From: a virus
Taxonomy: Duplodnaviria > Heunggongvirae > Uroviricota > Caudoviricetes
Length of the DNA: 16,257 nt
Reading direction: 5' to 3' (one strand)
IMG/VR virus record: IMGVR_UViG_2939127364_000003
The notes beneath the pieces are model-generated. The model ran no database searches. It was given only the letters and a program-made list of their open reading frames with translations, and had not been told where the DNA came from. Both the position numbers and the translations under genes were made by a program. Each line of letters begins with the position of its first letter. The first letter of the stretch is position 1. Of this stretch, positions 20-16,257 are shown in pieces.

Positions 20-1315
20 TTAATTTTTCATTGCTTCGTTATGGGGCATGGTTGGGGCAAACTCGCTTAACTGTGTATTTAACAAAGCTACCTGTGCATT
101 ATTGTTTTCAGACATCCATTTTCCGTATACCTGAAATACCATTTGCGCATCTGCATGGCCCATCTGGTTTGCTATAAATGCCGGGTTAGCACCAGCTGTC
201 AGCGACCAGCAGGCATAAGTATGTCTCGACTGATATGATTTTCGATGGCGGAGTCCGGCACGTTTTATCGCTGCGTCCCACATCTGCCTTATTGAGTCAA
301 CGGTAAAATGGTCACCATAATTTTTTACTCTCGCTGACACTTCAGGTTGAAAAACAAAGGTGCATTTTTGTTTTTCTGTTCTGCCATACTCTCTGAGGTG
401 AACATCAATGATATGCTCTTTGCTCAGTCTCGTTAATGTCATCTGGCTCCGGAGAGCGTCGATTGCTGGCTTAATAAGATGAATGACCCGATTGGTTCCC
501 GCCTGTGTTTTTGGTACCGTGAAACGGTCTTTTGCTAAATTTCTCCTGATCATCATTGTTCCATTTTTCAGATCTATGTCCTCCCATCCAAGTGCACACA
601 GCTCACCAGGGCGAACGCCAGTATAAACAGAAACACACCATAAATTTTTTGCTTGCTGATTTCTGCACGCATCGATAAGACGGATAAATTCCTCCCGCGA
701 AAGAGGATCCGGAATGGTTCTTGATTCCTTTAATGGCGAGATCCCCTTAAGCGGATTATCTGGCAGGTAACCGTTATCAACACCAAACTGGAACACGGCG
801 TTAAGATTTGTCATGTAATTATTTACAGTTACAGCCGATCGCCCTGGTTGTGTAACAATATAGTTACTTTTGGGGATCTGGTATCCAGTCAGTAGCTCTT
901 TACGAACCTCCAGTAATTTTTCTTTATTAATCGATGAGGCAAGATTTTTTTCACCGATTATGCTCAGGATATTTTTGATGACGGCACGGTATGTGTTGAG
1001 TGATGTTTTGGCGACTTCAGTTTCTTTCAGTGCCAGAAATTTTTCAGCCAGTTCTTTTATGGTTAAATCTTGTCGGGCCTCACCAAATTTTTCCAGATTG
1101 CGTGAGGAGGGAAACTGTTTTGCATAGTCGAAAACACCAGTTTTTATTGCGTAACAAACAGAGGAGCGTAGTTCACCTGCAACGCGCCTGTTTTTTGCTG
1201 TGTCAGGAACCCCCAGATTTTCCCTGACTCTTACGCCTTTATAAACAAACCAGATACGTAATTTCCCTCCATGGTTTTCCACGCCTGTCGGATATTTCAT
1301 TTCAACTTCTCTCAT
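20..1315 (-). CDS. int: Tyrosine-type site-specific integrase (lambdoid prophage Int), 431 aa; the start could instead be the internal Met at 1300
   Basis: Intact ORF. C-terminal region has the tyrosine-recombinase box II pattern (SRHTYACW ... MGHADAQMVFQVYGKW), giving the R/H/Y catalytic residues. Sits at the prophage end with its 3' end toward the window edge and a small xis-like gene immediately upstream. Confidence 0.9.
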   Translation of the reverse strand: MREVEMKYPTGVENHGGKLRIWFVYKGVRVRENLGVPDTAKNRRVAGELRSSVCYAIKTGVFDYAKQFPSSRNLEKFGEARQDLTIKELAEKFLALKETEVAKTSLNTYRAVIKNILSIIGEKNLASSINKEKLLEVRKELLTGYQIPKSNYIVTQPGRSAVTVNNYMTNLNAVFQFGVDNGYLPDNPLKGISPLKESRTIPDPLSREEFIRLIDACRNQQAKNLWCVSVYTGVRPGELCALGWEDIDLKNGTMMIRRNLAKDRFTVPKTQAGTNRVIHLIKPAIDALRSQMTLTRLSKEHIIDVHLREYGRTEKQKCTFVFQPEVSARVKNYGDHFTVDSIRQMWDAAIKRAGLRHRKSYQSRHTYACWSLTAGANPAFIANQMGHADAQMVFQVYGKWMSENNNAQVALLNTQLSEFAPTMPHNEAMKN

Positions 1316-1658: not shown

Positions 1659-4130
1659 TTAAGAATCAGCCTGACTCGGGATCAGTTTTTGCCAGATAAC
1701 TGAAACGTATTTTGCCTGGTAACGGGCGTCATCAAGTGCATTATGGCGCTCACCTTCGAATGGAATAGCCGTTCTGGCATCGAAGTCTATGGCTTTCCCC
1801 AGCTCAACGATTGTGCGTACATCGCGATCGTTGTAGTAACGCCACGGGCAGGGGATCCCCTGCCGTTCGTATGAACGGCGCAAAATCGTGTTGTCGAAGT
1901 TGGCTCCATTTCCCCAAACCTGAACAAAAAATTCACCGGAGTTTTCGTCGATAAATTCCCGCAATTGTAACAGTGCATCATCTAACGGGATTTCATCGGT
2001 CATAATGGCAGATTGCGCTTCGCGTGATTGCTTAAGCCACCATTTAATGGTGTTCCGATCAATGACTCCGCCAGCAGTTTCCAGATCGATAGTCTTACTA
2101 AATTCCGGTCCCATATCTCCGGTTTGCGGATCGAAAAATATTGCACCTATTGAGATGATCGGGGCATCAGGATTTTTTCCCATGGTTTCAAGGTCGATCA
2201 TTAGATGGTCACACGTCCTGCTGGTGGATGTGATTTCGTGATGACCGTTCACCTTAATTGAGTGATCTGCCGTCTCGCCAGTTTCATTATCGCTATTGTG
2301 ATGCTGATTGCCGCCAGTGTTCTCCTTGTGTGGATGTTCAGCGCCTTCCATTTCCTCCGGATCATCTTCCTGAACTTCAACCTGATATTCTTCATCGAAT
2401 GTTTCTTGATATGTTGCGTCGCCCATCACCGCGCCACAATCAGGGCAGTTGCCGCCGCCGGTCTGACCGCAGGCGGTGCAGACTTTTTCCACTTCCTGTT
2501 GCGCCACTGGTTCAGGCTGTTTCGTTTCTGGCTCGTTTTGTAACGCATTTGTGCTGTTTTGTTCCGCTTTTTGGTAGTTCCGTTCCGATTTATGCTGGTT
2601 CTGGTTCACAGAATCGCGGGTCTGGATCCCCTTAACCCATTTCGGATCATTCGGGTCACTAATCCCTTCAACAAATTCACCACGTGATGCAGCAAGCAAC
2701 TTATCGGCGTCAGGCTGGCTGATATTGGCTGCCTGCATAATTTTGTTTACTTCGTCAGCGGTAACTTTTATCGGCTCTGGTTGTTCTGAATCTTCAGCGG
2801 TATCTACATTTTGCGGTAAGCCCGTGTATGTGCCATTTTTTCGGGCAAAATATTCTTCTTTTGTGATTTCAGTGGCGCCAGCAGCCAGTGCCTTATCCAG
2901 ACCAGAAAGTTTGTTTGCGCGACCGTATTTTTCTCCGTCCTTATCTGCGAAGAGGAAATAGAACGGCCCCTCACGCTCTACAGATGGTTCAGCTTCCGGC
3001 GCGGTTTCATTTTTTGGGATATCAGATACCTCAGTTTCCACTGCATCAGTTTGTGTTTCTGATGACTGGAGAACATCAACAGTGCCCAGGTCTGTTTCTT
3101 CATTCTCAAACACGCCCTTTGTCGTCAGGTATTCGCAGATATATTTGTTCAGTGCTATGGGATCTTTGTGAATGTCGATCGGACGCTCACGGACAAGGCC
3201 AAAAATAGTCTGGCGGTCGTAGCGAAGGGCATCAGGCTGTTTGCGCATTGATGCCGAGATACGCTTCCAGTCTTCGCGGTCGTTGTCGATAACTTCTTTT
3301 TTTGCCCAGCGATGGATGCTGCCGTCAATGTTTCCGGCATCCACATCACCAGGCCAGAGAGCGTAGGCCAGTTCGTCATCCAGTGTTTTCCATGTCTGCT
3401 TGTATTCGCGATGAATGGCAGCAATGACCGGGCTGATTTTTCCTGTTGAATTTTCAGTGTACTGTTGATTGGCTCTGGCGCGGGCGAGATCAACAACAGA
3501 CGTGTATTTTCCGGTTTCCTTGCGTTCACCTTCGCGACGTTTTTTCCAGATGCGCATCTCTGCCTGAATTTCGGGCCATTTAGCACCAGGAATACATTTA
3601 TGCTTAACCCACCCAATGGCGTGCAACTTAAGCTCCGGATACATGGCGTTAACTTCTGGCATTTTCATCAACGCTTCAACGATATGTCCGTCGAATGTTG
3701 CCATGTCTTCCTGCAACAATTCCTGTGCGCTAATAACCATATCAACGGTGATGTTTTCACATGTGTCGAACTTAACCATGACAGCGTTCTGTACTTCAGG
3801 GGCCAGCTTGTCAAAAGTGACGTTCATCGGATCGGATTCAGTCTCAACCGGGACAAAAGAAGCAGACTCCTCATCCCAGCGGTTTTCCTGCATATATTCA
3901 GCATCCCATGAATCGAGGGCAGGGCGGGGTATGCCAGGTTTATCCTCGCAGACAATAAATTTATAAGCGCAGTCCTGAGCAGCCGGATAATGTTCCAGGA
4001 ACTGCCAGTGAAATTTTGCTCGAGCACGGCGTTCGTCGCCAGCTTCAATGGCTGTGGCTACAGCCACAGCGCCTTCTTCCCTTGTTGCCAGTTCGTCAGG
4101 AATAGCGGCGCAAATAAAGACTTTACTCAT
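1659..4130 (-). CDS. ydfE: RecE-like prophage exonuclease (YdfE-like, 823 aa) with a central CxxC...CxxC zinc-ribbon and a C-terminal DnaQ-like DEDDh 3'-5' exonuclease domain
   Basis: Long intact ORF. Central segment (DKLLAASRGEFVEGISDPNDPKWVKGIQTRD ... CTACGQTGGGNCPDCG) matches what I remember of Rac RecE. C-terminus carries DEDDh motifs (MIDLETMG as Exo I, HNALDDARY as Exo III). Position between xis and ydfD matches the Qin layout. Confidence 0.85.
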   Translation of the reverse strand: MSKVFICAAIPDELATREEGAVAVATAIEAGDERRARAKFHWQFLEHYPAAQDCAYKFIVCEDKPGIPRPALDSWDAEYMQENRWDEESASFVPVETESDPMNVTFDKLAPEVQNAVMVKFDTCENITVDMVISAQELLQEDMATFDGHIVEALMKMPEVNAMYPELKLHAIGWVKHKCIPGAKWPEIQAEMRIWKKRREGERKETGKYTSVVDLARARANQQYTENSTGKISPVIAAIHREYKQTWKTLDDELAYALWPGDVDAGNIDGSIHRWAKKEVIDNDREDWKRISASMRKQPDALRYDRQTIFGLVRERPIDIHKDPIALNKYICEYLTTKGVFENEETDLGTVDVLQSSETQTDAVETEVSDIPKNETAPEAEPSVEREGPFYFLFADKDGEKYGRANKLSGLDKALAAGATEITKEEYFARKNGTYTGLPQNVDTAEDSEQPEPIKVTADEVNKIMQAANISQPDADKLLAASRGEFVEGISDPNDPKWVKGIQTRDSVNQNQHKSERNYQKAEQNSTNALQNEPETKQPEPVAQQEVEKVCTACGQTGGGNCPDCGAVMGDATYQETFDEEYQVEVQEDDPEEMEGAEHPHKENTGGNQHHNSDNETGETADHSIKVNGHHEITSTSRTCDHLMIDLETMGKNPDAPIISIGAIFFDPQTGDMGPEFSKTIDLETAGGVIDRNTIKWWLKQSREAQSAIMTDEIPLDDALLQLREFIDENSGEFFVQVWGNGANFDNTILRRSYERQGIPCPWRYYNDRDVRTIVELGKAIDFDARTAIPFEGERHNALDDARYQAKYVSVIWQKLIPSQADS

Positions 4131-4770: not shown

Positions 4771-4827
4771 AAAACGGCGGCAGAGCAGTCACGGAGTAAA
4801 ACTGATACCGCCAAACGTCACCAGAAA
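4771..4827 (-). ncRNA. dicF: DicF small regulatory RNA (ends approximate)
   Basis: Minus strand reads TTTCTGGTGACGTTTGGCGGTATCAGTTTTACTCCGTGACTGCTCTGCCGCCGTTTTT, matching remembered DicF including the 3' GC stem and T-run. Located between the upstream operon gene and dicB as in Qin. Confidence 0.8.
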
Positions 4828-6971: not shown

Positions 6972-8143
<1,172 letters not shown>

Positions 8144-9244: not shown

Positions 9245-9501
9245 ATACAGCGAACTCCATTGGTTTAGTTGGATATTTACTGTGCTGGACAAAACGGTTT
9301 GCGGGGAAATCTTAGTTAAGTAGAATGACTGCGGGTGCTTGAGGCTATCTGCCTCGGGCACGAACACCAACGGCAGGTAGAGAAAAGCCCCAGTTAACAT
9401 TACGCGTCCTGCAAGACGCTTAACATTAATCTGAGGCCAATTTCATGCTAGACACATGTAGGTTAGCCTCTTACGTGCCGAAAGGCAAGGAGAAGCAGGC
9501 T

Positions 9502-9657
9502 ATGAAGCAGCAAAAGGCGATGTTAATCGCCCTGATCGTCATCTGTTTAACCGTCATAGTGACGGCACTGGTAACGAGGAAAGACCTCTGCGAGGTACGA
9601 ATCCGAACCGGCCAGACGGAGGTCGCTGTCTTCACAGCTTACGAACCTGAGGAGTAA
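9502..9657 (+). CDS. hok: Hok/Gef-family type I toxin (51 aa); a 70-aa in-frame upstream extension begins at 9445
   Basis: MKQQKAMLIALIVICLTVIVTALVTRKDLCEVRIRTGQTEVAVFTAYEPEE matches the Hok/Gef family (remembered HokD/RelF). AAGGAG 9 nt upstream. Structured 3' region and terminator follow. Confidence 0.85.
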   Translation: MKQQKAMLIALIVICLTVIVTALVTRKDLCEVRIRTGQTEVAVFTAYEPEE

Positions 9658-9876: not shown

Positions 9877-10933
9877 GGCTTTGTTGAATAAATCAGATTT
9901 CGGGTAAGTCTCCCCCGTAGCGGGTTGTGTTTTCAGGCAATACGCACGCTTTCAGGCATACCTGCTTTCGTCATTTTGTTCAGCGCTCGTACCAGGGCCA
10001 TAGCCTCCGCAACCTGACCATCGTAGTCACGCAGCGTCAGTGAACCCCCGAACAGCTGTTTTACCCGGTACATCGCCGTTTCCGCTATCGAGCGACGGTT
10101 GTAATCTGTTGTCCATTTCCACCGCGCATTACTCCCGGTCATTCGCTGATTAGCCACTGCACGGTTACGGTCTACATATTCACCGGGCCAGTAACCCGCA
10201 CCTTTTCGGGGAGGGATAAGCGCGCTGATTTTCTTACGCCGCAGTTCATCGTGACATAGCCGGGTATCGTAAGCGCCATCGGCGGCGGCTGACCTGATTT
10301 TCCGGTGGGTTTGCCGGATTAACCCGGGGAAGGCCTCTGAGTCCGTAACGTTGTTCAGCGACAGGTCAGCGCAGATGATTTCATGTGTTTTACTGTCAAC
10401 GGCGAGATGCAGCTTACGCCAGATACGGCGGCGTTCCTGGCCATGCTTTTTGACTTTCCACTCGCCTTCACCGAAGACCTTCAGCCCGGTGGAATCAATT
10501 ACCAGGTGTGCGATTTCACCCCGGGTGGGCGTTTTGAAACTGACATTAACCGACTTTGCCCGCCTGCTGACACAGCTGTAATCCGGGCAGCGTAGCGGAA
10601 CGTTCATCAGAGAAAAAATGGAATCAATAAAGCCCTGCGCAGCCCGCAGGGTCAGCCTGAATACGCGTTTAATGACCAGCACAGTAGTGATGGCAAGGTC
10701 AGAATAGCGCTGAGGTCTGCCTCGTGAAGAAGGTGTTGCTGACTCATACCAGGCCTGAATAGCTTCATCATCCAGCCAGAAAGTTATGGAGCCACGGTTG
10801 ATGAGGGCTTTATTGTAGGTGGGCCAGTTGGTGATTTTGAACTTTTGCTTTGCCACGGAACGGTCTGCGTTGTCGGGAAGATACGTGATCTGATCCTTCA
10901 ACTCAGCAAAAGTTCGATTTATTCAACAAAGCC
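9877..10933 (-). mobile_element. IS903-family insertion sequence (IS5 family), complete at 1057 bp, no target-site duplication
   Basis: 18-bp terminal inverted repeats GGCTTTGTTGAATAAATC (9877-9894) and GATTTATTCAACAAAGCC (10916-10933). Length is 1057 bp. The 9-bp flanks ATTCTGATG and CATCTAACC do not match. Confidence 0.9.
9933..10901 (-). CDS. IS903-family DDE transposase (322-aa ORF)
   Basis: [91 protein letters not shown]... matches remembered IS903/IS102 transposase. Enclosed by the matching inverted repeats. Confidence 0.9.
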
Positions 10934-10962: not shown

Positions 10963-12660
10963 TTGACTGCGGATATAACATTAACGCCGAAAGATATTGG
11001 TACTTTAAATTCAGTAACGATGTCTTTCTCTGGCGGGGCTGGGTGGTTCAAACTGGCTACGGTTACCATGCCACAAGCGAGTTCCATCGTTTACATCGCA
11101 TTGATTGGTGGCGCTGGTTACAACGTCGGTTCCCCACATCAGGCAGGCATTTCAGAACTGGTTCTACGAGCAGGCAATGGAAACCCCAAAGGAATTACCG
11201 GGGCTTTGTGGAAGCGTACAGCCGTCGGATTAACGAATTTCGCCTGGATCAACACATCCGGCGATACATATGATATTTACGTTGAGATTGGCAATTATGC
11301 GACGAGTGTAAATATCCATTGGGATTGTACTGCAAATGCGTCAGTTTCTGTTTATACCTCGCCAACATATTCAGCGAGTAAGCCTTCCAGCGTTACCTAT
11401 GGTGTTGTTTATACGATGTATAGCTCACATCAGAAACCTACACCATCAGATATTGGAGCACTGCCAACAACCGGAGGAACAGTTTCAGGTCCGTTGTCTG
11501 TTACAGGTGGATTAACTGGTTCATTGAATGGTAATGCAAGTACAGCCACGAAATTGCAGACGGCAAGATCTATCGGTGGAGTTGTTTTCGACGGTTCTGC
11601 AAATATTAACCTTCCAGGTGTAAACACTACGGGTAATCAGAACACCACTGGTAATGCTGCAACTGCTACAAAACTTCAGACTGCAAGAAAAATATCCGGT
11701 GTTCCATTTGATGGTTCTACTGATATCACTTTAACCGCCGCGCATGTGGCTGCTTTTGCCAGAAGGGCAACGGATACATATGCCGATGCGGATGGGGGCG
11801 TTCCCTGGAATGCCGAATCAGGCGCTTATAAGGTCACCCGCTCTGGCGACAGCTATATTCTGGTTAACTTCTATACCGGAGTCGGAAGTTGCCGGACCTT
11901 GCAGATGAAGGCGCATTACAGAAATGGTGGTCTGTTCTACCGTTCTTCAAGAGACGGTTATGGTTTTGAGGAAGACTGGGCAGAAGTTTATACCTCGAAA
12001 AATCTTCCACCAGAAAGCTACCCAGTCGGCGCACCAATCCCGTGGCCATCAGATACCGTTCCGTCTGGTTATGCCCTGATGCAGGGGCAGACTTTTGACA
12101 AATCTGCCTACCCGAAACTTGCAGCCGCTTATCCGTCAGGCGTGATCCCTGATATGCGTGGCTGGACGATTAAGGGCAAGCCCGCCAGTGGTCGTGCCGT
12201 ATTGTCTCAGGAACAGGACGGCATAAAATCGCATACCCACAGCGCCAGCGCATCCAGTACTGATTTGGGGACGAAAACCACATCGTCGTTTGATTACGGC
12301 ACTAAATCCACGAATAACACTGGTGCGCATACCCATAGTGTTAGCGGTACGGCTGCTTCAGCCGGTGCACATACCCATTCGATGGCATTTGTTTCAGGTG
12401 GTTCCAGTGGTGCTCCGGGAAGTGGATCACCTGATTATTCTAAATACAGTGTTAACACTTCTTCTGCAGGCGCTCATACGCACTCTGTATCGGGTACTGC
12501 TGCAAGCGCAGGTGCACACGCACATACTGTAGGTATTGGTGCGCATACGCACTCGGTTGCGATTGGTTCACATGGACACACCATCACCGTTAACGCTGCT
12601 GGTAACGCGGAAAACACCGTCAAAAACATCGCATTTAACTATATTGTGAGGCTTGCATAA
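10963..12660 (+). CDS. stf: Side tail fibre protein, 5'-truncated by the IS903 element (565-aa ORF with TTG as first codon)
   Basis: Two tandem phage-tail-fibre repeats ([26 protein letters not shown] and [26 protein letters not shown]), repeated GAHTHS His-x-His motifs and C-terminal [22 protein letters not shown] typical of lambda Stf / T4 gp37-type tips. The frame is open back through the IS boundary and there is no credible native start. Confidence 0.8.
11531..11730 (+). repeat. Tandem coding repeat (phage tail fibre repeat) within stf
   Basis: Two copies beginning GGTAATGC..., each encoding GNA(S/A)TATKLQTAR...FDGS..., about 120 bp apart. Confidence 0.55.
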
Positions 12661-13241
12661 TGGCATTCAGAATGAGTGAACAAGCACGGACCATAAAAAT
12701 TTATAATCTGCTGTCCGGAACTAATGAATTTATTGGTGAAGGTGATGCATATATTCCGCCTCATACAGGTCTGCCAGCAAACAGTACCGACATTGCACCG
12801 CCAGATATTCCAGCTGGCTTCGTGGCTGTTTTCAACAGTGATGAGTTATCGTGGCATCTCGTTGAAGATCATCGGGGTAAAACGGTTTATGACGTGGCTT
12901 CCGGCGACGCGTTATTTATTTCTGAACTCGGCTCATTACCGGAAAATGTCACCTGGTTATCCCCGGAAGGGGAGTTTCAGAAGTGGAACGGCACAGCCTG
13001 GGTGAAAGATGCAGAAGCAGAAAAACTATTCCGGATCCGGGAGGCGGAAGAAACAAAAAACAGCCTGATGCAGGCAGCGAATGAGCATATTGCGCCACTT
13101 CAGGATGCTGTAGATCTGGAAATCGCAACGGAGGAAGAAAACTCGTTGCTGGAAGCCTGGAAAAAGTATCGGGTGTTGCTGAACCGTGTTAATACAACAA
13201 CTGCACCGGATATTGAATGGCCAGTAGCACCTATAGGGTAA
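12660..13241 (+). CDS. tfa: Tail fibre assembly protein Tfa (193 aa)
   Basis: ATG overlaps the stf stop (TAATG). C-terminal [31 protein letters not shown] is the conserved Tfa end of lambdoid and Mu-like tail-fibre chaperones. Confidence 0.85.
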
Positions 13242-13334
13242 ATTCGTAATGATTACCTAAATACGTTATTCTTTTGTTCAAAAAGTGATTTTGCTATAGG
13301 TAGGGAGTATGTTCTTGGATTAAGAATAAAAAAT

Positions 13335-13357
13335 CGCCATGAAAGAGCTTCATGGCG
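13335..13357 (-). terminator. Hairpin that reads as a Rho-independent terminator on the minus strand
   Basis: 9-bp perfect stem CGCCATGAA / TTCATGGCG with a 5-nt loop. On the minus strand it is followed by ATTTTTTATTCTT; on the plus strand there is no T-run. Confidence 0.35.
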
Positions 13358-13829
13358 AGTACATAAACGTACAAAATGTGATGAAAGTAGAGTGGCGTAA
13401 GCCACTATATTAAGATATGACAATAGCGAACAAAAGTAAATAACATTTTATGGACGTTTAATTGTTAATTATAAAAACTAGAGTGCCCGATATTATTTAT
13501 CTTGCTTTAAAATAATGTACTCAAACCAAATTTTTGAGCTAAAAGCTCAAATAATATAAATGCAATGATAATGTTTAATAAGACAATTAGCTTGCTTTGT
13601 ATTTTCATTTCGGAATACTGTTAAGTAACTTTGATGATCCTAACAATAGATCGGAATTTTCTTAGAGTCAATGGTCACTGTTTTTGTTTGCAAAGCAAAT
13701 GTTTTGGTGGTTATAAGTTTTCCTAATATAGTCACCTATGCAACTTGTTCCGTGTGGAGATTAAAGGTTAAAATTTAATGCGAAGATGGAATTATAATAT
13801 ATTTTTTATAATTAATTTAACCTTAACAT

Positions 13830-13927
13830 CGTTGCTGGCGGCATGGAAGAAATATCGGGTCTTGCTGATATCGTGTTGGCACTTCCTTAGTGCGGTTATC
13901 GAATGGCCAGCTGTACCTGTGGGGTAA
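13830..13927 (+). pseudogene. tfa 3'-end remnant (direct repeat copy 2)
   Basis: Encodes [31 protein letters not shown]-stop, homologous to the last residues of the intact tfa (13144-13241). Sequence immediately upstream is AT-rich and unrelated. Confidence 0.55.
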
Positions 13928-14059
13928 AAACTTTATATGGATGCTATTTTTATAATAGCTGGTAAAAACTGGCCGAACTGAAATTCACTGTTGATAAAAA
14001 AGATGTGTTTGAGTGTATGTCATTGTTTTCTTAATGGAATCCACTAGAATGCAGCGAAT

Positions 14060-14257
14060 TTAAGAAGGTGGGTTTTTATTGGAATATAAACTACAATAAT
14101 GCTCAACTCGTTCGTAGAATTGTTTTTTCTTATTTCTTGGAATGCTAACCATTATATGCATTATGGGGGCGATGCTTCCTGATAATTTACATGATGCATA
14201 CATTGAAGCAATAAATTCAATATCATTGTCATCAAAGTTAAAGCTTTCTCCGTCCAT
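14060..14257 (-). CDS. Candidate small ORF (65 aa) in the AT-rich region, weak support
   Basis: AAGGAA 5 nt upstream of the ATG. MDGESFNFDDNDIEFIASMYASCKLSGSIAPIMHIMVSIPRNKKKQFYERVEHYCSLYSNKNPPS. No family recognised, and AT-rich DNA produces such ORFs by chance. Confidence 0.25.
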   Translation of the reverse strand: MDGESFNFDDNDIEFIASMYASCKLSGSIAPIMHIMVSIPRNKKKQFYERVEHYCSLYSNKNPPS

Positions 14258-14585
14258 TTCAATTCCTTATGTGTTTGGCACAACTGATGCTGTATCCCAT
14301 GAGAATTTATGCAAGTTGTTATGTTTGATTTGATATTGCAATGATAATTGTAGCTAATTGTTTTCAATTGAGTGAAAGTTTATTTCGAGTGATTAAGTCG
14401 AAAAAAAAGATTTCTCACGGTTAGTAAGCATATTAGGTCAGTATTCAGATATGAATGGTATTAATGACTAAATTTTCAATCATATATGGATTTTTATGCT
14501 GATGAAGATGTTTTATTTGGCGATTCGTCAAGCATCTTCACTTAAGTAATCGTATATTTTAAGAGTGCAAAAGAGAAAGGGACAA

Positions 14586-14685
14586 CGTTGCTCGCACTCT
14601 GGATTAAATATAGGGTGTTGTTAAACTGCGTTGATACATAATTGTACCGGATATTGAGTGGTCTGAAGTCCCAGTCATTAAGTAA
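14586..14685 (+). pseudogene. tfa 3'-end remnant (direct repeat copy 3), frameshifted
   Basis: Encodes LLALWIKYRVLLNCVDT-stop, then in another frame IVPDIEWSEVPVIK-stop; together homologous to the Tfa C-terminus. A shorter TTAAGTAATCGT trace of the same end also occurs at 14542-14553. Confidence 0.55.
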
Positions 14686-14973
14686 TCGTTTCGTGATATG
14701 CCGCAGAAACGTTGTATGCAATAACGTTCTGCGGTTGGCTGATGCACTTTCGAGAGTGTATTGAATAATTTCAAGCCGTTATTGTTTTTACGCGTAACAC
14801 CATGAAAAGACTGCTTATCTGTTGGGGTGTTTTTTGGGGCATATATGGGACAGAAATAGGCCACAGATAGATAGTAAGATCGAACTCAGGATGCTTTTGA
14901 AAAAATGTAACTATCTGAAAAAACCTAGAAAGCGCCAAGGAAACCACAGAATGAGAAAAAACATCTGTGAATT

Positions 14974-16257
14974 ATGGATTTCCAGTTATATTCGCTCGGC
15001 GCAGCGTTAGTGTTTCATGAAATATTTTTTCCTGAATCATCAACGGCAATGGCGTTAATTCTGGCAATGGGAACCTACGGTGCAGGTTATGTGGCGCGTA
15101 TTGTCGGAGCATTTATTTTCGGCAAAATGGGCGACAGAATAGGGCGTAAAAAAGTGCTCTTTATTACCATCACCATGATGGGGATCTGTACCACCTTAAT
15201 TGGTGTGTTACCGACCTATGCACAGATTGGTGTTTTTGCACCCATCTTGCTGGTGACGTTGCGTATTATTCAGGGGTTGGGTGCAGGTGCGGAAATTTCC
15301 GGTGCCGGTACGATGCTGGCGGAATATGCGCCAAAAGGTAAGCGCGGAATTATCTCCTCATTTGTGGCTATGGGAACTAACTGCGGAACCTTGAGCGCAA
15401 CGGCAATCTGGGCCTTTATGTTCTTCATTCTCAGTAAAGAGGAACTGCTGGCGTGGGGATGGCGTATACCGTTCCTGGCGAGCGTTGTCGTGATGGTCTT
15501 TGCTATCTGGTTGCGTATGAATCTGAAAGAAAGCCCGGTCTTTGAGAAGGTTAACGACAGTAACCAACCGACAGCAAAACCTGCACCTGCTGGTAGCATG
15601 TTCCAGAGCAAATCCTTCTGGCTGGCAACAGGGCTGCGTTTTGGTCAGGCGGGTAACTCCGGGTTAATTCAGACTTTCCTTGCAGGCTATTTAGTGCAGA
15701 CGTTATTGTTTAACAAAGCAATTCCAACAGATGCATTGATGATCAGTTCGATTCTCGGCTTTATGACCATTCCGTTCCTTGGTTGGTTATCCGATAAAAT
15801 TGGTCGCCGGATCCCGTATATTATTATGAATACCTCCGCGATTGTGCTGGCATGGCCAATGCTTTCTATCATTGTAGATAAAAGCTATGCCCCGAGCACC
15901 ATTATGGTTGCACTGATTGTGATTCATAACTGTGCGGTGCTGGGATTATTTGCTCTGGAAAACATTACCATGGCAGAAATGTTCGGCTGTAAAAACCGCT
16001 TTACCCGGATGGCTATTTCTAAAGAAATTGGTGGTCTTATCGCTTCCGGTTTTGGTCCTATCCTGGCGGGTATTTTCTGCACCATGACGGAATCCTGGTA
16101 TCCGATCGCCATTATGATCATGGCATATTCAGTGATTGGTTTAATCTCTGCGCTGAAAATGCCAGAGGTGAAAGACCGTGATTTAAGTGCGCTGGAAGAC
16201 GCTGCGGAAGATCAACCGCGTGTTGTAAGAGCTGCGCAACCTTCCAGAAGTCTGTAA
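14974..16257 (+). CDS. ydfJ: MFS metabolite:H+ symporter-family transporter YdfJ, N-terminally truncated (427-aa ORF)
   Basis: Multi-helix membrane protein with the MHS signature region (GKMGDRIGRKKVLFITI ... RIIQGLGAGAEISGAGTMLAEYAPKGKRG). The ORF begins inside what aligns to helix 1 of ProP-type transporters, with an in-frame stop 3 nt upstream. Matches the remembered 427-aa K-12 YdfJ next to Qin. Confidence 0.85.
   Translation: MDFQLYSLGAALVFHEIFFPESSTAMALILAMGTYGAGYVARIVGAFIFGKMGDRIGRKKVLFITITMMGICTTLIGVLPTYAQIGVFAPILLVTLRIIQGLGAGAEISGAGTMLAEYAPKGKRGIISSFVAMGTNCGTLSATAIWAFMFFILSKEELLAWGWRIPFLASVVVMVFAIWLRMNLKESPVFEKVNDSNQPTAKPAPAGSMFQSKSFWLATGLRFGQAGNSGLIQTFLAGYLVQTLLFNKAIPTDALMISSILGFMTIPFLGWLSDKIGRRIPYIIMNTSAIVLAWPMLSIIVDKSYAPSTIMVALIVIHNCAVLGLFALENITMAEMFGCKNRFTRMAISKEIGGLIASGFGPILAGIFCTMTESWYPIAIMIMAYSVIGLISALKMPEVKDRDLSALEDAAEDQPRVVRAAQPSRSL

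Follow-up and report, generated by a model that had tools for sequence, protein, structure and literature searches.

Why the 3' end of a tail fibre assembly gene should occur three times in direct orientation, separated by AT-rich DNA, between the fibre genes and the host junction of a lambdoid prophage is the question raised by the locus described here. The locus lies in a 16,257-nt stretch of viral DNA (the window), and its features are collected in Table 1. An initial annotation, made from the letters of the sequence, had proposed either repeated cargo exchange by recombination at the conserved tfa end or an array of decayed tfa-linked cassettes whose payload may be small peptides or RNAs. 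For gene annotation we used a RefSeq record identical to the window, in which the window position equals the record position minus 901.

Table 1. Features of the interval from stf to ydfJ (positions in the window; strand given where it applies)
Feature	Position	Strand	Remarks
stf, side tail fibre gene	10963..12660	+	From the ORF list; RefSeq start 11068
tfa, intact tail fibre assembly ORF	12660..13241	+	193 aa; tfaQ in RefSeq
Spacer 1, phage-borne AT-rich moron-like module	13242..13825		Normally 3' of tfa
Predicted intrinsic terminator of the leftward unit in spacer 1	13334..13358	-	10-11 bp stem followed by UUUUUU
33-aa ORF, putative YncL-like small membrane protein	13507..13608	-	MKIQSKLIVLLNIIIAFILFELLAQKFGLSTLF; unannotated
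Sigma-70-like promoter candidate	13643..13671	-	TTGACT-17-TATTGT, upstream of the 33-aa ORF
Novel joint	13820..13829		End of spacer 1 to codon ~162 of an older tfa
Copy 2, older tfa 3' fragment	13829..13927	+	Residues 162-193; frameshift in mid-fragment
Spacer 2, AT-rich DNA	13928..14566		Lies 3' of an intact tfa in a prfC prophage
65-aa orphan ORF	14060..14257	-	ATG start, AAGGA Shine-Dalgarno-like motif; RefSeq hypothetical protein WP_001421370
12-nt trace	14542..14553	+	Identical to the copy 3 stop-codon region, 14678-14689
Copy 3, older tfa 3' fragment	14567..14685	+	Residues ~156-193; internal stop and frameshift
Conserved hairpin region	14686..14795		Module of several lambdoid lineages with differing integrases
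Bulged hairpin	14701..14734	-	Homologue of a leftward intrinsic terminator located 3' of int or dinI
P arm of attP	14796..14971		Qin-type integrase; phage side of attR
att core, prophage-host boundary	14972..14982		TTATGGATTTC; common to attR, attP and attL
ydfJ without its first ~28 codons	14974..16257	+	Missing codons at attL, beside int

The stf gene lies directly 3' of an IS903B copy, and the product of the tfa gene that follows matches the Pfam family Caudo_TAP (PF02413) over its full length (profile positions 1-130 of 131, E = 9.5e-44). The last ~100 nt of this intact gene (13143-13241) form the first copy of the repeat, and the same end recurs twice more in direct orientation, as had been described, with copy-to-copy spacings of 686 and 756 bp (blocks 13143-13182/13207-13242, 13829-13868/13893-13928, and 14585-14624/14640-14668). 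Compared without gaps to the two blocks of the tfa copy, copy 2 shows 85% and 81% identity and copy 3 shows 73% and 79%; when gaps are allowed, the identities to tfa are 73% over 101 nt for copy 2 and 69% over 132 nt for copy 3. In translation, copy 2 corresponds to Tfa residues 162-193 (56%, E = 8e-8); the match of copy 3 is divided between two frames, with residues 156-179 in one and 183-192 in the other (E = 6e-5). Judged from these alignments, the similarity of the repeats is well above chance. Neither copy 2 nor copy 3 encodes a complete Caudo_TAP protein; only the last ~32-38 codons are present, in two frames, and both copies are dead, non-functional tfa fragments. Apart from indels, copy 2 runs collinear with the intact tfa 3' end of a prophage at prfC in strain 210205630, and copy 3 is ~95% identical to the corresponding remnant in the same prophage. 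Copy 3 had been placed at 14586-14685; it is present there, but its start lies further left, at ~14567, with a possible leftward extension to 14539. The 12-nt trace previously noticed to its left is indeed an exact repeat of the stop-codon region of copy 3, and its significance is suggestive only (shuffles average 0.11 matches to the pattern): it is possibly a scar older than copy 3, and a lucky repeat is also conceivable.

To the right of copy 3, the DNA at 14686-14970 had been regarded as a third intervening cargo segment. By its homologies it is instead a leftward terminator-type hairpin followed by the P arm of attP, and not cargo. The hairpin region could be aligned in the prfC prophage, mEp460, SPF_0923, a sit prophage, Qin, and HannyBb. 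Folding bears out the bulged hairpin, with -20.7 kcal/mol on the plus strand and -15.6 kcal/mol on the minus strand (z about -3), and the consensus has 12 pairs, among which one C-G/A-U pair is compensatory. On the minus strand, the stem is followed by UUUUU in Qin, HannyBb, and mEp460, whereas this U-run of an intrinsic terminator is missing in the window as well as in the prfC prophage and SPF_0923. In phage lambda, the tI/sib region provides a leftward terminator and an RNase III hairpin beyond attP. The hairpin here lies likewise on the P-arm side, 238-271 bp from the att core and downstream of int in the free phage, and in Qin, HannyBb, and mEp460 it is a stem with the U-run on the leftward strand; unlike in lambda, the U-run in the window is replaced by the abutting tfa remnant. 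Homology to Qin-type phages starts already at 14701, and the P arm, which directly adjoins int in HannyBb, is 87% identical to that of phages HannyBb, Tritos, and PhiR42_1. The att core is shared by attR in the window, attP in HannyBb, and attL in the identical RefSeq record, and it occurs once in the window. Everything up to 14971 is phage DNA.

The spacers between the copies are AT-rich, as first described, with 25-37% GC compared to 45-57% in stf/tfa and ydfJ. Spacer 1 (25-32% GC versus about 45-52% in stf/tfa) is unlike the flanking phage genes in composition and is ~98-99% identical to the DNA that follows tfa in phages mEp332 and ev099 and in a prophage at zinT; this homology decays from ~13720 and is gone by ~13820-13825. 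Spacer 1 is carried by 831 of 5,426 complete E. coli genomes, in up to four places per genome. The minus-strand terminator that had been predicted at 13335-13357 was recovered, one base longer at either end, as a stem with a U-run (-15.2 kcal/mol, z = -5.1), and it is kept but weaker in the 90%-identical copy of strain A20. The 33-aa ORF matches the NCBIfam profile of YncL (NF000537) with E = 1.3e-5 and 25 bits, under the cutoff of 35, while neither 8 shuffles nor the reversed version of the sequence matches this profile; the match is specific, though sub-cutoff. Residues 1-28 align to K-12 YncL from Met1 without gaps, at 39% identity and 64% similarity. The predicted peptide resembles the 31-aa YncL in size and in its single hydrophobic helix ending in (K/R)FG, but unlike K-12 YncL it is phage-borne and lies in AT-rich DNA. 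Its sequence is identical in mEp332, ev099, and EBJ003, and three of the four substitutions in the A20 version are silent. A tblastn search of phages with the peptide gave no match even to the identical ORF of mEp332, evidently through masking by the low-complexity filter, and so carries no information on its distribution. The ORF has no good Shine-Dalgarno sequence and is annotated in none of the sampled genomes, and the evidence for a promoter of the spacer gene is weak because sites such as the candidate upstream of it (9 of 12 consensus matches) do not occur in the region above shuffle expectation. The ORF looks like a real gene, and the small ORFs of the spacers may be expressed. Spacer 1 is moron-like and is predicted to encode a YncL-like membrane peptide; like the morons of lambdoid phages, it forms a leftward unit complete in itself, with a terminator and a distinct composition of its own. 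In E. coli K-12, YncL is a membrane protein of the stress response, and its production depolarises the membrane and condenses the nucleoid (PMC12542507). Because this chromosomal relative depolarises the membrane, a role of the phage-borne peptide in lysogen physiology or phage exclusion is testable. AT-rich, "ORF-poor" intergenic ends of prophages can conceal real small genes: viable phages carry the putative YncL-like gene, as do 831 of 5,426 complete E. coli genomes, but it has gone unannotated.

Spacer 2 is 79.5% identical over its full length to the DNA that begins 8 bp past the tfa stop in the prfC prophage of strain 210205630, and the identity climbs to about 95% from about 14340. It is found in 591 genomes, and no phage record carries it. 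The spacers had been said to hold no ORF of 60 aa or more with a convincing start, which is partly right; the exception is the 65-aa ORF of spacer 2, with its ATG and AAGGA motif, which RefSeq annotates as a hypothetical protein in most carrier genomes. In the prfC prophage, the start, stop, and length of this ORF are unchanged at 69% amino acid identity, with a dN/dS of 0.31 and substitutions distributed 12/9/19 over the three codon positions. Word-indexed and exhaustive HMMER searches found relatives in E. coli only, with many truncated variants among them, and otherwise returned weak multi-stretch matches to long proteins. The ORF belongs to no Pfam, PHROG, or NCBIfam family, and scans of nine spacer ORFs against Pfam and PHROGs gave nothing significant. 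The earlier suggestion of small-peptide payloads appears to hold for spacer 1, with its YncL-like ORF, and possibly for spacer 2, with an ORF whose dN/dS is ~0.3.

The units of the array were each found elsewhere behind an intact tfa gene. Phages mEp332, ev099, and PhiR70_1 carry unit 1 (tfa and spacer 1); the prophage at prfC has unit 2, which runs from copy 2 through spacer 2 and copy 3 into the hairpin region, behind intact tfa; and unit 3, in the form of an intact tfa with the hairpin region, is located upstream of sitDCBA. It follows that the right ends of modules are stacked in the array, one nested in the next, and a single extra joint, at 13820-13829, accounts for the arrangement. At this joint, the phage homology of spacer 1 ends and the tfa homology begins abruptly at 13829, with no clear microhomology readable between them. 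The view of the initial annotation that the locus is an array of decayed tfa-linked cassettes is essentially right, as each remnant was found together with its downstream DNA behind an intact tfa elsewhere. The three units are not equal cassettes, however; they are nested, with spacer 2, copy 3, and the hairpin travelling as one pre-existing module. The repeats are ordinary phage mosaicism, leftover tfa 3' ends stacked by swaps of fibre and cargo modules, and the tfa-ydfJ interval is probably the non-essential b-region arm of a defective lambdoid prophage of E. coli at the Qin site, made up of nested right ends of tail-fibre modules.

A few comparator loci suggest an order of events. In the oldest state, tfa would have stood directly against the leftward terminator hairpin near attP, an arrangement that persists in SPF_0923. 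A fibre/tfa cassette with the AT-rich spacer 2 and its 65-aa ORF would then have been joined into this old tfa ~117 nt before its stop, leaving copy 3, and that state persists at prfC in strain 210205630. Last, the present stf-tfa with spacer 1 would have been joined 99 nt before the stop of the second tfa, leaving copy 2, and the truncated tfa ends would since have gained frameshifts and a stop. On the left, homology within the conserved fibre genes presumably resolved each replacement; the joint on the right, at the border of the conserved C-terminal block of tfa, may have been illegitimate or based on short homology. Read in this order, the locus would be a clean example, dated by nesting, of how the variable arm of lambdoid phages is built up, in which the swap of a host-range cassette leaves a scar of the prior chaperone gene and every intermediate state of the stack persists in other genomes.

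The position of the array fits this picture of nested module ends. Morons occupy the non-essential arm between the tail-fibre genes and attP, the b region in lambda, and the concept of lambdoid mosaicism associated with Hendrix and Juhala reportedly places them there. The array lies in the same position between tfa and att and is AT-rich; unlike at usual morons, the joints have left same-oriented 3' fragments of the preceding gene, stacked twice. A moron-like presence/absence pattern can be read from the DNA that follows tfa, which is spacer 1 in mEp332 and ev099, spacer 2 in the prfC prophage, and the hairpin region in SPF_0923. The tfa-ydfJ interval is a known cargo slot, because in relatives it is occupied by pinQ-ydfK-ynfT (Qin), by nleC and dinI (EHEC), and elsewhere by sitABCD, and the earlier statement that the Qin-type slot carries an invertase and cargo agrees with these contents. 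EHEC strain 08_3449 has nleC and a dinI-like gene in the interval, together with a fragment of the tfa 3' end. Tobe and co-workers are said to have described, in 2006, exchangeable effector loci in the lambdoid prophages of EHEC and EPEC, whose slot is identical to that of the present array. The spacer ORFs include no type III effector or recognisable virulence gene, and the cargo consists of tiny ORFs. As had already been argued, the array is not a Pin-type inversion switch, because the repeats are direct and there is no invertase: between tfa and ydfJ we found no recombinase ORF or annotation and no inverted copy of tfa or stf, all three tfa ends being direct, and an alternative fibre C-terminus is absent at the locus. 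The Pin/Gin/Cin/Min systems of e14, Qin, Mu, P1, and p15B act on the same kind of genes, a fibre C-terminus and tfa, and likewise have alternative tfa copies near the end of the fibre operon; unlike those, the extra tfa copies here are truncated and dead.

Among the other explanations, the one that survives best is that the tfa 3' blocks and the hairpin/P arm work as portable homology arms through which infecting lambdoid phages take up or lose cargo by relaxed homologous recombination of the Red or RecA type, and that the stack is maintained for this exchange. Lambda recombines with Rac and Qin across stf-tfa in a Red-beta-dependent manner, and a third of the right-hand crossovers fall in a 95%-identical tfa block (De Paepe et al., 2014, PMC3945230). 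This relaxed recombination concerns the same region as the present array, the stf-tfa genes of Qin and Rac with crossovers in the conserved tfa block, and such lambda crossovers, together with the finding of spacer 1 after tfa both in free phages and in prophages integrated at several sites, speak for exchange. Fragments of the tfa 3' end were found in 8 of 14 surveyed loci, always in the orientation of the fibre genes, and four independent remnants from four lineages have left breakpoints that all lie 99-146 nt ahead of the stop, a span of ~50 nt where the conserved block starts (a 77-nt tail assembly fragment of EHEC, which aligns poorly to tfa, was excluded from the breakpoints). However, the array is fixed, at 98.4-100% identity, in 578 of the 5,426 complete E. 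coli genomes, and among these 5,426 genomes no deletion or replacement bounded by the repeats occurs at the locus, so the presence/absence polymorphism that had been anticipated between the repeats is not seen. Synthetic junction queries found no copy 2::copy 3 recombinant, and those for tfa::copy 2 matched only ancestral-type modules at 79-85% identity. Repeated cargo exchange as an ongoing process is therefore not borne out by any variant at the locus, and exchange belongs to its history. Moreover, copies 2 and 3 would be poor substrates because they are only 69-85% identical to tfa and carry indels, nothing points to selection keeping them, and an exchange inside the block replaces DNA and does not duplicate the block. 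Relaxed recombination likewise swaps DNA between homologous flanks and alone makes no duplicated tfa ends, and, unlike in that system, no recent exchange is visible at the present locus. We consider it unlikely that the stack is a working site of exchange.

The clustering of the breakpoints at the edge of the conserved tfa block hints that the block served as a recombination arm, and it is unlike what purely random illegitimate joining would give, suggesting a more specific, homology-guided process. It is possible, although we put it forward only tentatively and with some doubt, that the conserved C-terminal ~100-145 nt of tfa is a portable module boundary or homology arm, used for the exchange of fibre cassettes to its left and of cargo to its right. 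Such a portable boundary would explain why the tfa 3' fragments are same-oriented and have their left ends within ~50 nt, and defective prophages bearing stacks would then be reservoirs of small cargo genes, such as the one for the YncL-like peptide, for infecting phages. The locus thereby raises the tractable question of whether the conserved tfa end is a preferred recombination boundary.

Successive prophages could also have integrated in tandem at the ydfJ att site, with deletions leaving the older tfa ends and right arms, and the lambdoid prophage that occupies the ydfJ site does vary between lineages. Between the units lies neither a second att core nor another copy of the P arm, and the single att core of the window gives no indication of tandem prophages. 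The block of spacer 2, copy 3, and hairpin, moreover, exists at prfC with a different neighbour (dinI), and the presence of the inner unit at another site indicates that the stack formed in phage genomes and not at the ydfJ att site. Tandem integration is thus very improbable.

Had tfa been duplicated locally in tandem, with or without the DNA beyond it, and had the two copies further downstream then decayed, direct copies would result at spacings close to the gene length plus an intergenic gap, as observed, and there is a weak collinear hint at the protein level between Tfa residues 29-55 and 14193-14273. In local and semi-global DNA alignments, however, the best matches of the 5' 436 nt of tfa to either spacer, on both strands, were not above those of dinucleotide shuffles (z = -1.9 to 1.9), and the spacers also lack similarity to each other. 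The array is not an in-situ duplication, because the spacers are unrelated to the 5' part of tfa, and since other loci show each unit, downstream DNA included, after a different intact tfa, this explanation is effectively refuted and has hardly any probability left. A single decayed full-length tfa composed of spacer 2 and copy 3 was rejected, as the DNA alignment scores lie within those of the shuffles. The spacers also do not bear out an outcome that the initial annotation had considered, an alignment to ordinary decayed tfa or pin genes; they show no similarity to the tfa 5' part.

A function of the tfa-end copies as RNAs of the Rfam family IS009, whether small RNA genes or cis-regulatory elements, is hardly credible: the strong match to this family (RF02111; 212 bits at 13003-13201, above the gathering threshold of 117) sits inside the intact tfa coding sequence, the weak scores of copies 3 and 2 (40.8 and 33.1 bits, the copy 3 match spanning 14452-14643) are far below the threshold and track sequence homology, and the copies bear indels typical of pseudogenes. 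An Rfam scan of 13000-15100 at E <= 1 returned, besides IS009, one chance miRNA match and nothing else, which leaves the RNA payloads once proposed without an Rfam family other than one that is itself tfa coding sequence. A 2026 preprint places IS009 near PasB, which is located between the tail genes I and J in E2348/69; the spacers were ruled out as Pas sRNA genes on account of this location and of a PasB probe that is absent from the window even at 3 mismatches. IS009 is tfa coding sequence, and we flag the Rfam entry as a piece of that gene.

The last ~100 nt of tfa were found twice more in direct orientation before ydfJ, as the initial annotation had noted, with start-to-start distances of 686 and 756 bp. 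In ungapped alignments to the tfa copy, copy 2 shows 85% and 81% identity in two blocks and copy 3 shows 73% and 79%, while the gapped identities are 73% over 101 nt and 69% over 132 nt, respectively. At the translated level, Tfa residues 162-193 are recovered from copy 2 (E 8e-8) and residues 156-179 and 183-192 from copy 3 (E 6e-5), the latter two stretches in separate frames with an intervening stop. These alignments and translations show that both copies are real and that both are dead. The spacers are AT-rich (25-37% GC vs ~45-57% in the flanking genes), and the two hairpins described earlier both exist. The initial finding of no convincingly started ORF of at least 60 aa needs a slight correction, since a 65-aa ATG ORF with an upstream AAGGA motif is present in spacer 2.

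The window matches E. coli strain CP53 at 100% identity, and the annotation was taken from the RefSeq record of that strain (L001; window position = L001 position - 901). The window is essentially a single lambdoid prophage, defective and located at the Qin site (rspB/ydfJ), with the RefSeq gene order, from left to right, int, xis, exo, ydfD, dicB, the cI/cro region, IS5, hokD, IS903B, stf (tail fibre), tfa, and ydfJ without its N-terminus. No head or tail-shaft genes are annotated in it by RefSeq, so stf-tfa here cannot serve a virion. The transposase genes of IS5 and IS903B break up the prophage. The DicF and sok RNAs both score above the Rfam gathering thresholds, and sok adjoins hokD; Qin-type regulatory RNAs are therefore still present in the degraded prophage. 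The 3' part of stf contains short direct repeats coding for repeated His-x-His motifs (GAHTHS...), which also occur in the fibre tips of other phages.

Coordinates of features in the window (default) and in compared records
Feature	Position	Strand	Remark
DicF RNA	4775-4826	minus	
IS5 transposase gene	7017-7997		
sok antitoxin RNA	9333-9507	plus	
hokD	9502-9657		
IS903B transposase gene	9933-10901		directly upstream of stf
stf direct repeats	12230-12560		
IS009 match	13003-13201		
Copy 1 (tfa end)	13143-13241		
Spacer 1	13242-13825		
Intrinsic terminator, strong	13334-13358	leftward	spacer 1
33-aa ORF	13608-13507	minus	between promoter-like site and terminator
Promoter-like site, weak	13643-13671		spacer 1
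Copy 2	13829-13927		
Spacer 2	13928-14566		
65-aa ORF	14060-14257	minus	annotated by RefSeq in most carrier genomes
Copy 3	~14567-14685		
Hairpin	14701-14734		
att core	14972-14982		
ydfJ codons 1-28 (attL)	L001 ~790-880		CP53 record
ydfJ remainder (attR)	14974 onward		
sitABCD cargo	L010 3777-6541; L014 3358-6255; L015 3358-6255		prophages; one deposited as 'Salmonella phage SPF_0923'
Lone tfa 3' fragment	HannyBb (L009) 3124-3222; mEp460 (L011) 2902-3102		viable phages; downstream of a different fibre-gene type
Second IS903B copy	L013 4393-5361		strain NB4833
Hairpin ~1 kb after tfa	L003 6009-6060	minus	

The right boundary was located by aligning attR (window), attP (phage HannyBb) and attL (prophage left end), which have the core TTATGGATTTC in common; the window matches attP to the left of the core and is ydfJ to its right, and ydfJ is divided by the prophage. 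All of 13242-14971 is thus phage DNA. The segment 14701-14980 shares 87% identity with Qin-type prophages and with the free phages HannyBb, Tritos, and PhiR42_1, and its counterpart in HannyBb directly adjoins the integrase gene. The stretch 14686-14970, taken initially as a third cargo spacer, is by the att alignment not cargo; it is a terminator hairpin plus attP arm, and this recognition is a useful by-product of the analysis. ydfJ is annotated as N-terminally incomplete in all genomes sampled, and an uninterrupted ydfJ could be rare in E. coli.

Each unit of the array stands behind an intact tfa elsewhere. Tfa with spacer 1 occurs at ~98-99% identity in the viable phages mEp332 and ev099, in PhiR70_1 and in a prophage at zinT, and at 90% identity in a prophage carrying sitABCD; the homology weakens from ~13720 and ends at ~13820-13825, a few bases before copy 2. 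Spacer 1 is found in 831 of 5,426 complete E. coli genomes, at no more than four places per genome. The prfC prophage of strain 210205630 (L012) carries an intact tfa, 8 bp, a full-length spacer 2 homolog, a copy 3 homolog, the hairpin region to window ~14795, and a dinI-like gene, with an identity to the window of ~79% in the first part and ~95% from ~14340. By this arrangement, 13928-14795 is one pre-existing module that already contained copy 3 as a scar. The jump from ~78% to ~95% inside spacer 2 (window ~14335; L012 ~5560) marks a further mosaic breakpoint in an apparently single spacer. The hairpin region comes straight after an intact tfa in "Salmonella phage SPF_0923", and sitDCBA comes next; several prophages carry the sitABCD iron/manganese transporter operon as cargo immediately behind spacer 1 or the tfa/hairpin region. 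Because all three units are found elsewhere, the window arrangement requires only one more joint, which would have linked codon ~162 of the tfa formerly heading the spacer 2 module with the right end of spacer 1. The array stacks the right ends of tail-fibre modules one inside another, with pseudogene scars left behind, and lies in the defective prophage's variable arm. It exemplifies known lambdoid mosaicism and is no new type of system. The initial interpretation holds in part: the reading as decayed tfa-linked units is retained, and the repeated cargo exchange belongs to the past of this locus and is not ongoing.

The whole tfa-ydfJ interval occurs in 578 of the 5,426 complete genomes at 98.4-100% identity. 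Synthetic recombinant junctions, kept short so that the normal arrangement cannot merge into one match, were used as queries for repeat-bounded presence/absence polymorphism, and no deletion of the array was found: the copy 2::copy 3 junction (spacer 2 deleted) matched none of the 5,426 genomes, and the tfa::copy 2 junction (spacer 1 deleted) was covered in only five, at 79-85% identity. These five are the ancestral type of intact tfa plus spacer 2, not deletions of the array. Structural variation of the array was seen only as an IS903B insertion into spacer 2; in strain NB4833, this second IS903B copy lies just past the start of the 65-aa ORF. On these comparisons the stack is a fixed fossil rather than a cassette in current use. 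An origin from tandemly integrated prophages with later deletions finds no support, as there is a single att core with no repeated P-arm sequence and the inner stack is also present at a different att site. In-situ duplication of tfa was rejected: the spacers match the 5' 436 nt of tfa no better than shuffles do (z between -1.9 and 1.9) and show no similarity to each other. Qin-type loci carry pinQ-ydfK-ynfT in the tfa-ydfJ slot, whereas the window has no invertase and its repeats are direct, and the earlier exclusion of a Pin-type switch holds. Pas sRNAs, which a recent preprint ties to IS009 neighbourhoods, are unrelated to the array.

Rfam catalogues IS009 (RF02111) among the small RNA genes; its matches, at 212-229 bits, fall on the 3' part of intact tfa coding sequences (in the window and among the compared loci L003-L015). 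A further useful result is that IS009 is tfa coding sequence, and in practice the model detects tfa genes and fragments. Scanning 14 tail-fibre loci with it revealed an intact tfa only in five, an intact tfa with one fragment in one, an intact tfa with two fragments (this array) in three, and a fragment without intact tfa in five, including the viable phages mEp460 and HannyBb. All fragments share the orientation of the current fibre genes and follow closely behind them. The left ends of the fragments lie 99 (copy 2), ~117 (copy 3), ~116 (Qin/HannyBb, where the upstream DNA differs), and ~146 (mEp460/sit group) nt before the stop, a cluster that coincides with the left margin of the conserved C-terminal tfa block. 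De Paepe et al. demonstrated genuine lambda x Rac/Qin crossovers in this block, with Red-beta-dependent exchange (PMC3945230). Four joints within ~50 nt of a 582-nt gene are tighter than random breakage predicts, in a small sample of lineages that are possibly not fully independent. The clustering and the known crossover suggest the tfa end as a portable homology arm, a reading that is tentative and rather doubtful because of that sample; it gives the useful, testable hint that tfa may contain a boundary at which recombination is favoured.

The initial suggestion of a small-peptide payload is in part borne out. Spacer 1 behaves like a classical moron, with a composition unlike its flanks, presence or absence between the same neighbours, a strong leftward terminator of its own and a weak promoter-like site. 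Its 33-aa peptide matches the NCBIfam YncL profile with E 1.3e-5 and 25 bits, short of the 35-bit cutoff; neither the reversed sequence nor any of eight shuffles matches the profile, and a natural variant matches again. It aligns with K-12 YncL ungapped from Met1 (39% identity, 64% similarity), is identical in the phage copies including mEp332 and ev099, and in the 90%-identical copy of strain A20 shows four substitutions, three of them silent. None of 30 sampled genomes has it annotated, and this phage-borne yncL-like small gene is another useful by-product. Production of YncL, a stress-response membrane protein, leads to sublethal membrane depolarisation and nucleoid condensation (PMC12542507), and the phage copy may have a YncL-like activity. 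The 65-aa ORF of spacer 2 is a possible gene: start, stop and length are kept in the 79%-identical copy, dN/dS is 0.31, and most changes are at third positions. It occurs in E. coli only, with many truncated variants, and scans of Pfam, PHROG, and NCBIfam found no family for it.

The hairpin at the array's right end is common to six lineages with different integrases. Its minus-strand stem, a consensus of 12 pairs, is preserved with a single compensatory change (C-G/A-U), and in Qin, HannyBb, and mEp460 the stem is followed by a U-run, which points to an intrinsic terminator that acts leftward, downstream of int or dinI. Its place corresponds to that of lambda tI/sib. The window, the prfC prophage, and SPF_0923 have lost the U-run, and there the stem directly borders the tfa end. 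Another conserved hairpin, ~1 kb after tfa in loci L003, L007, and L008, weakly matches an Rfam plastid 3'UTR family (40.9 vs the threshold of 68 bits) and is probably another phage-arm terminator.
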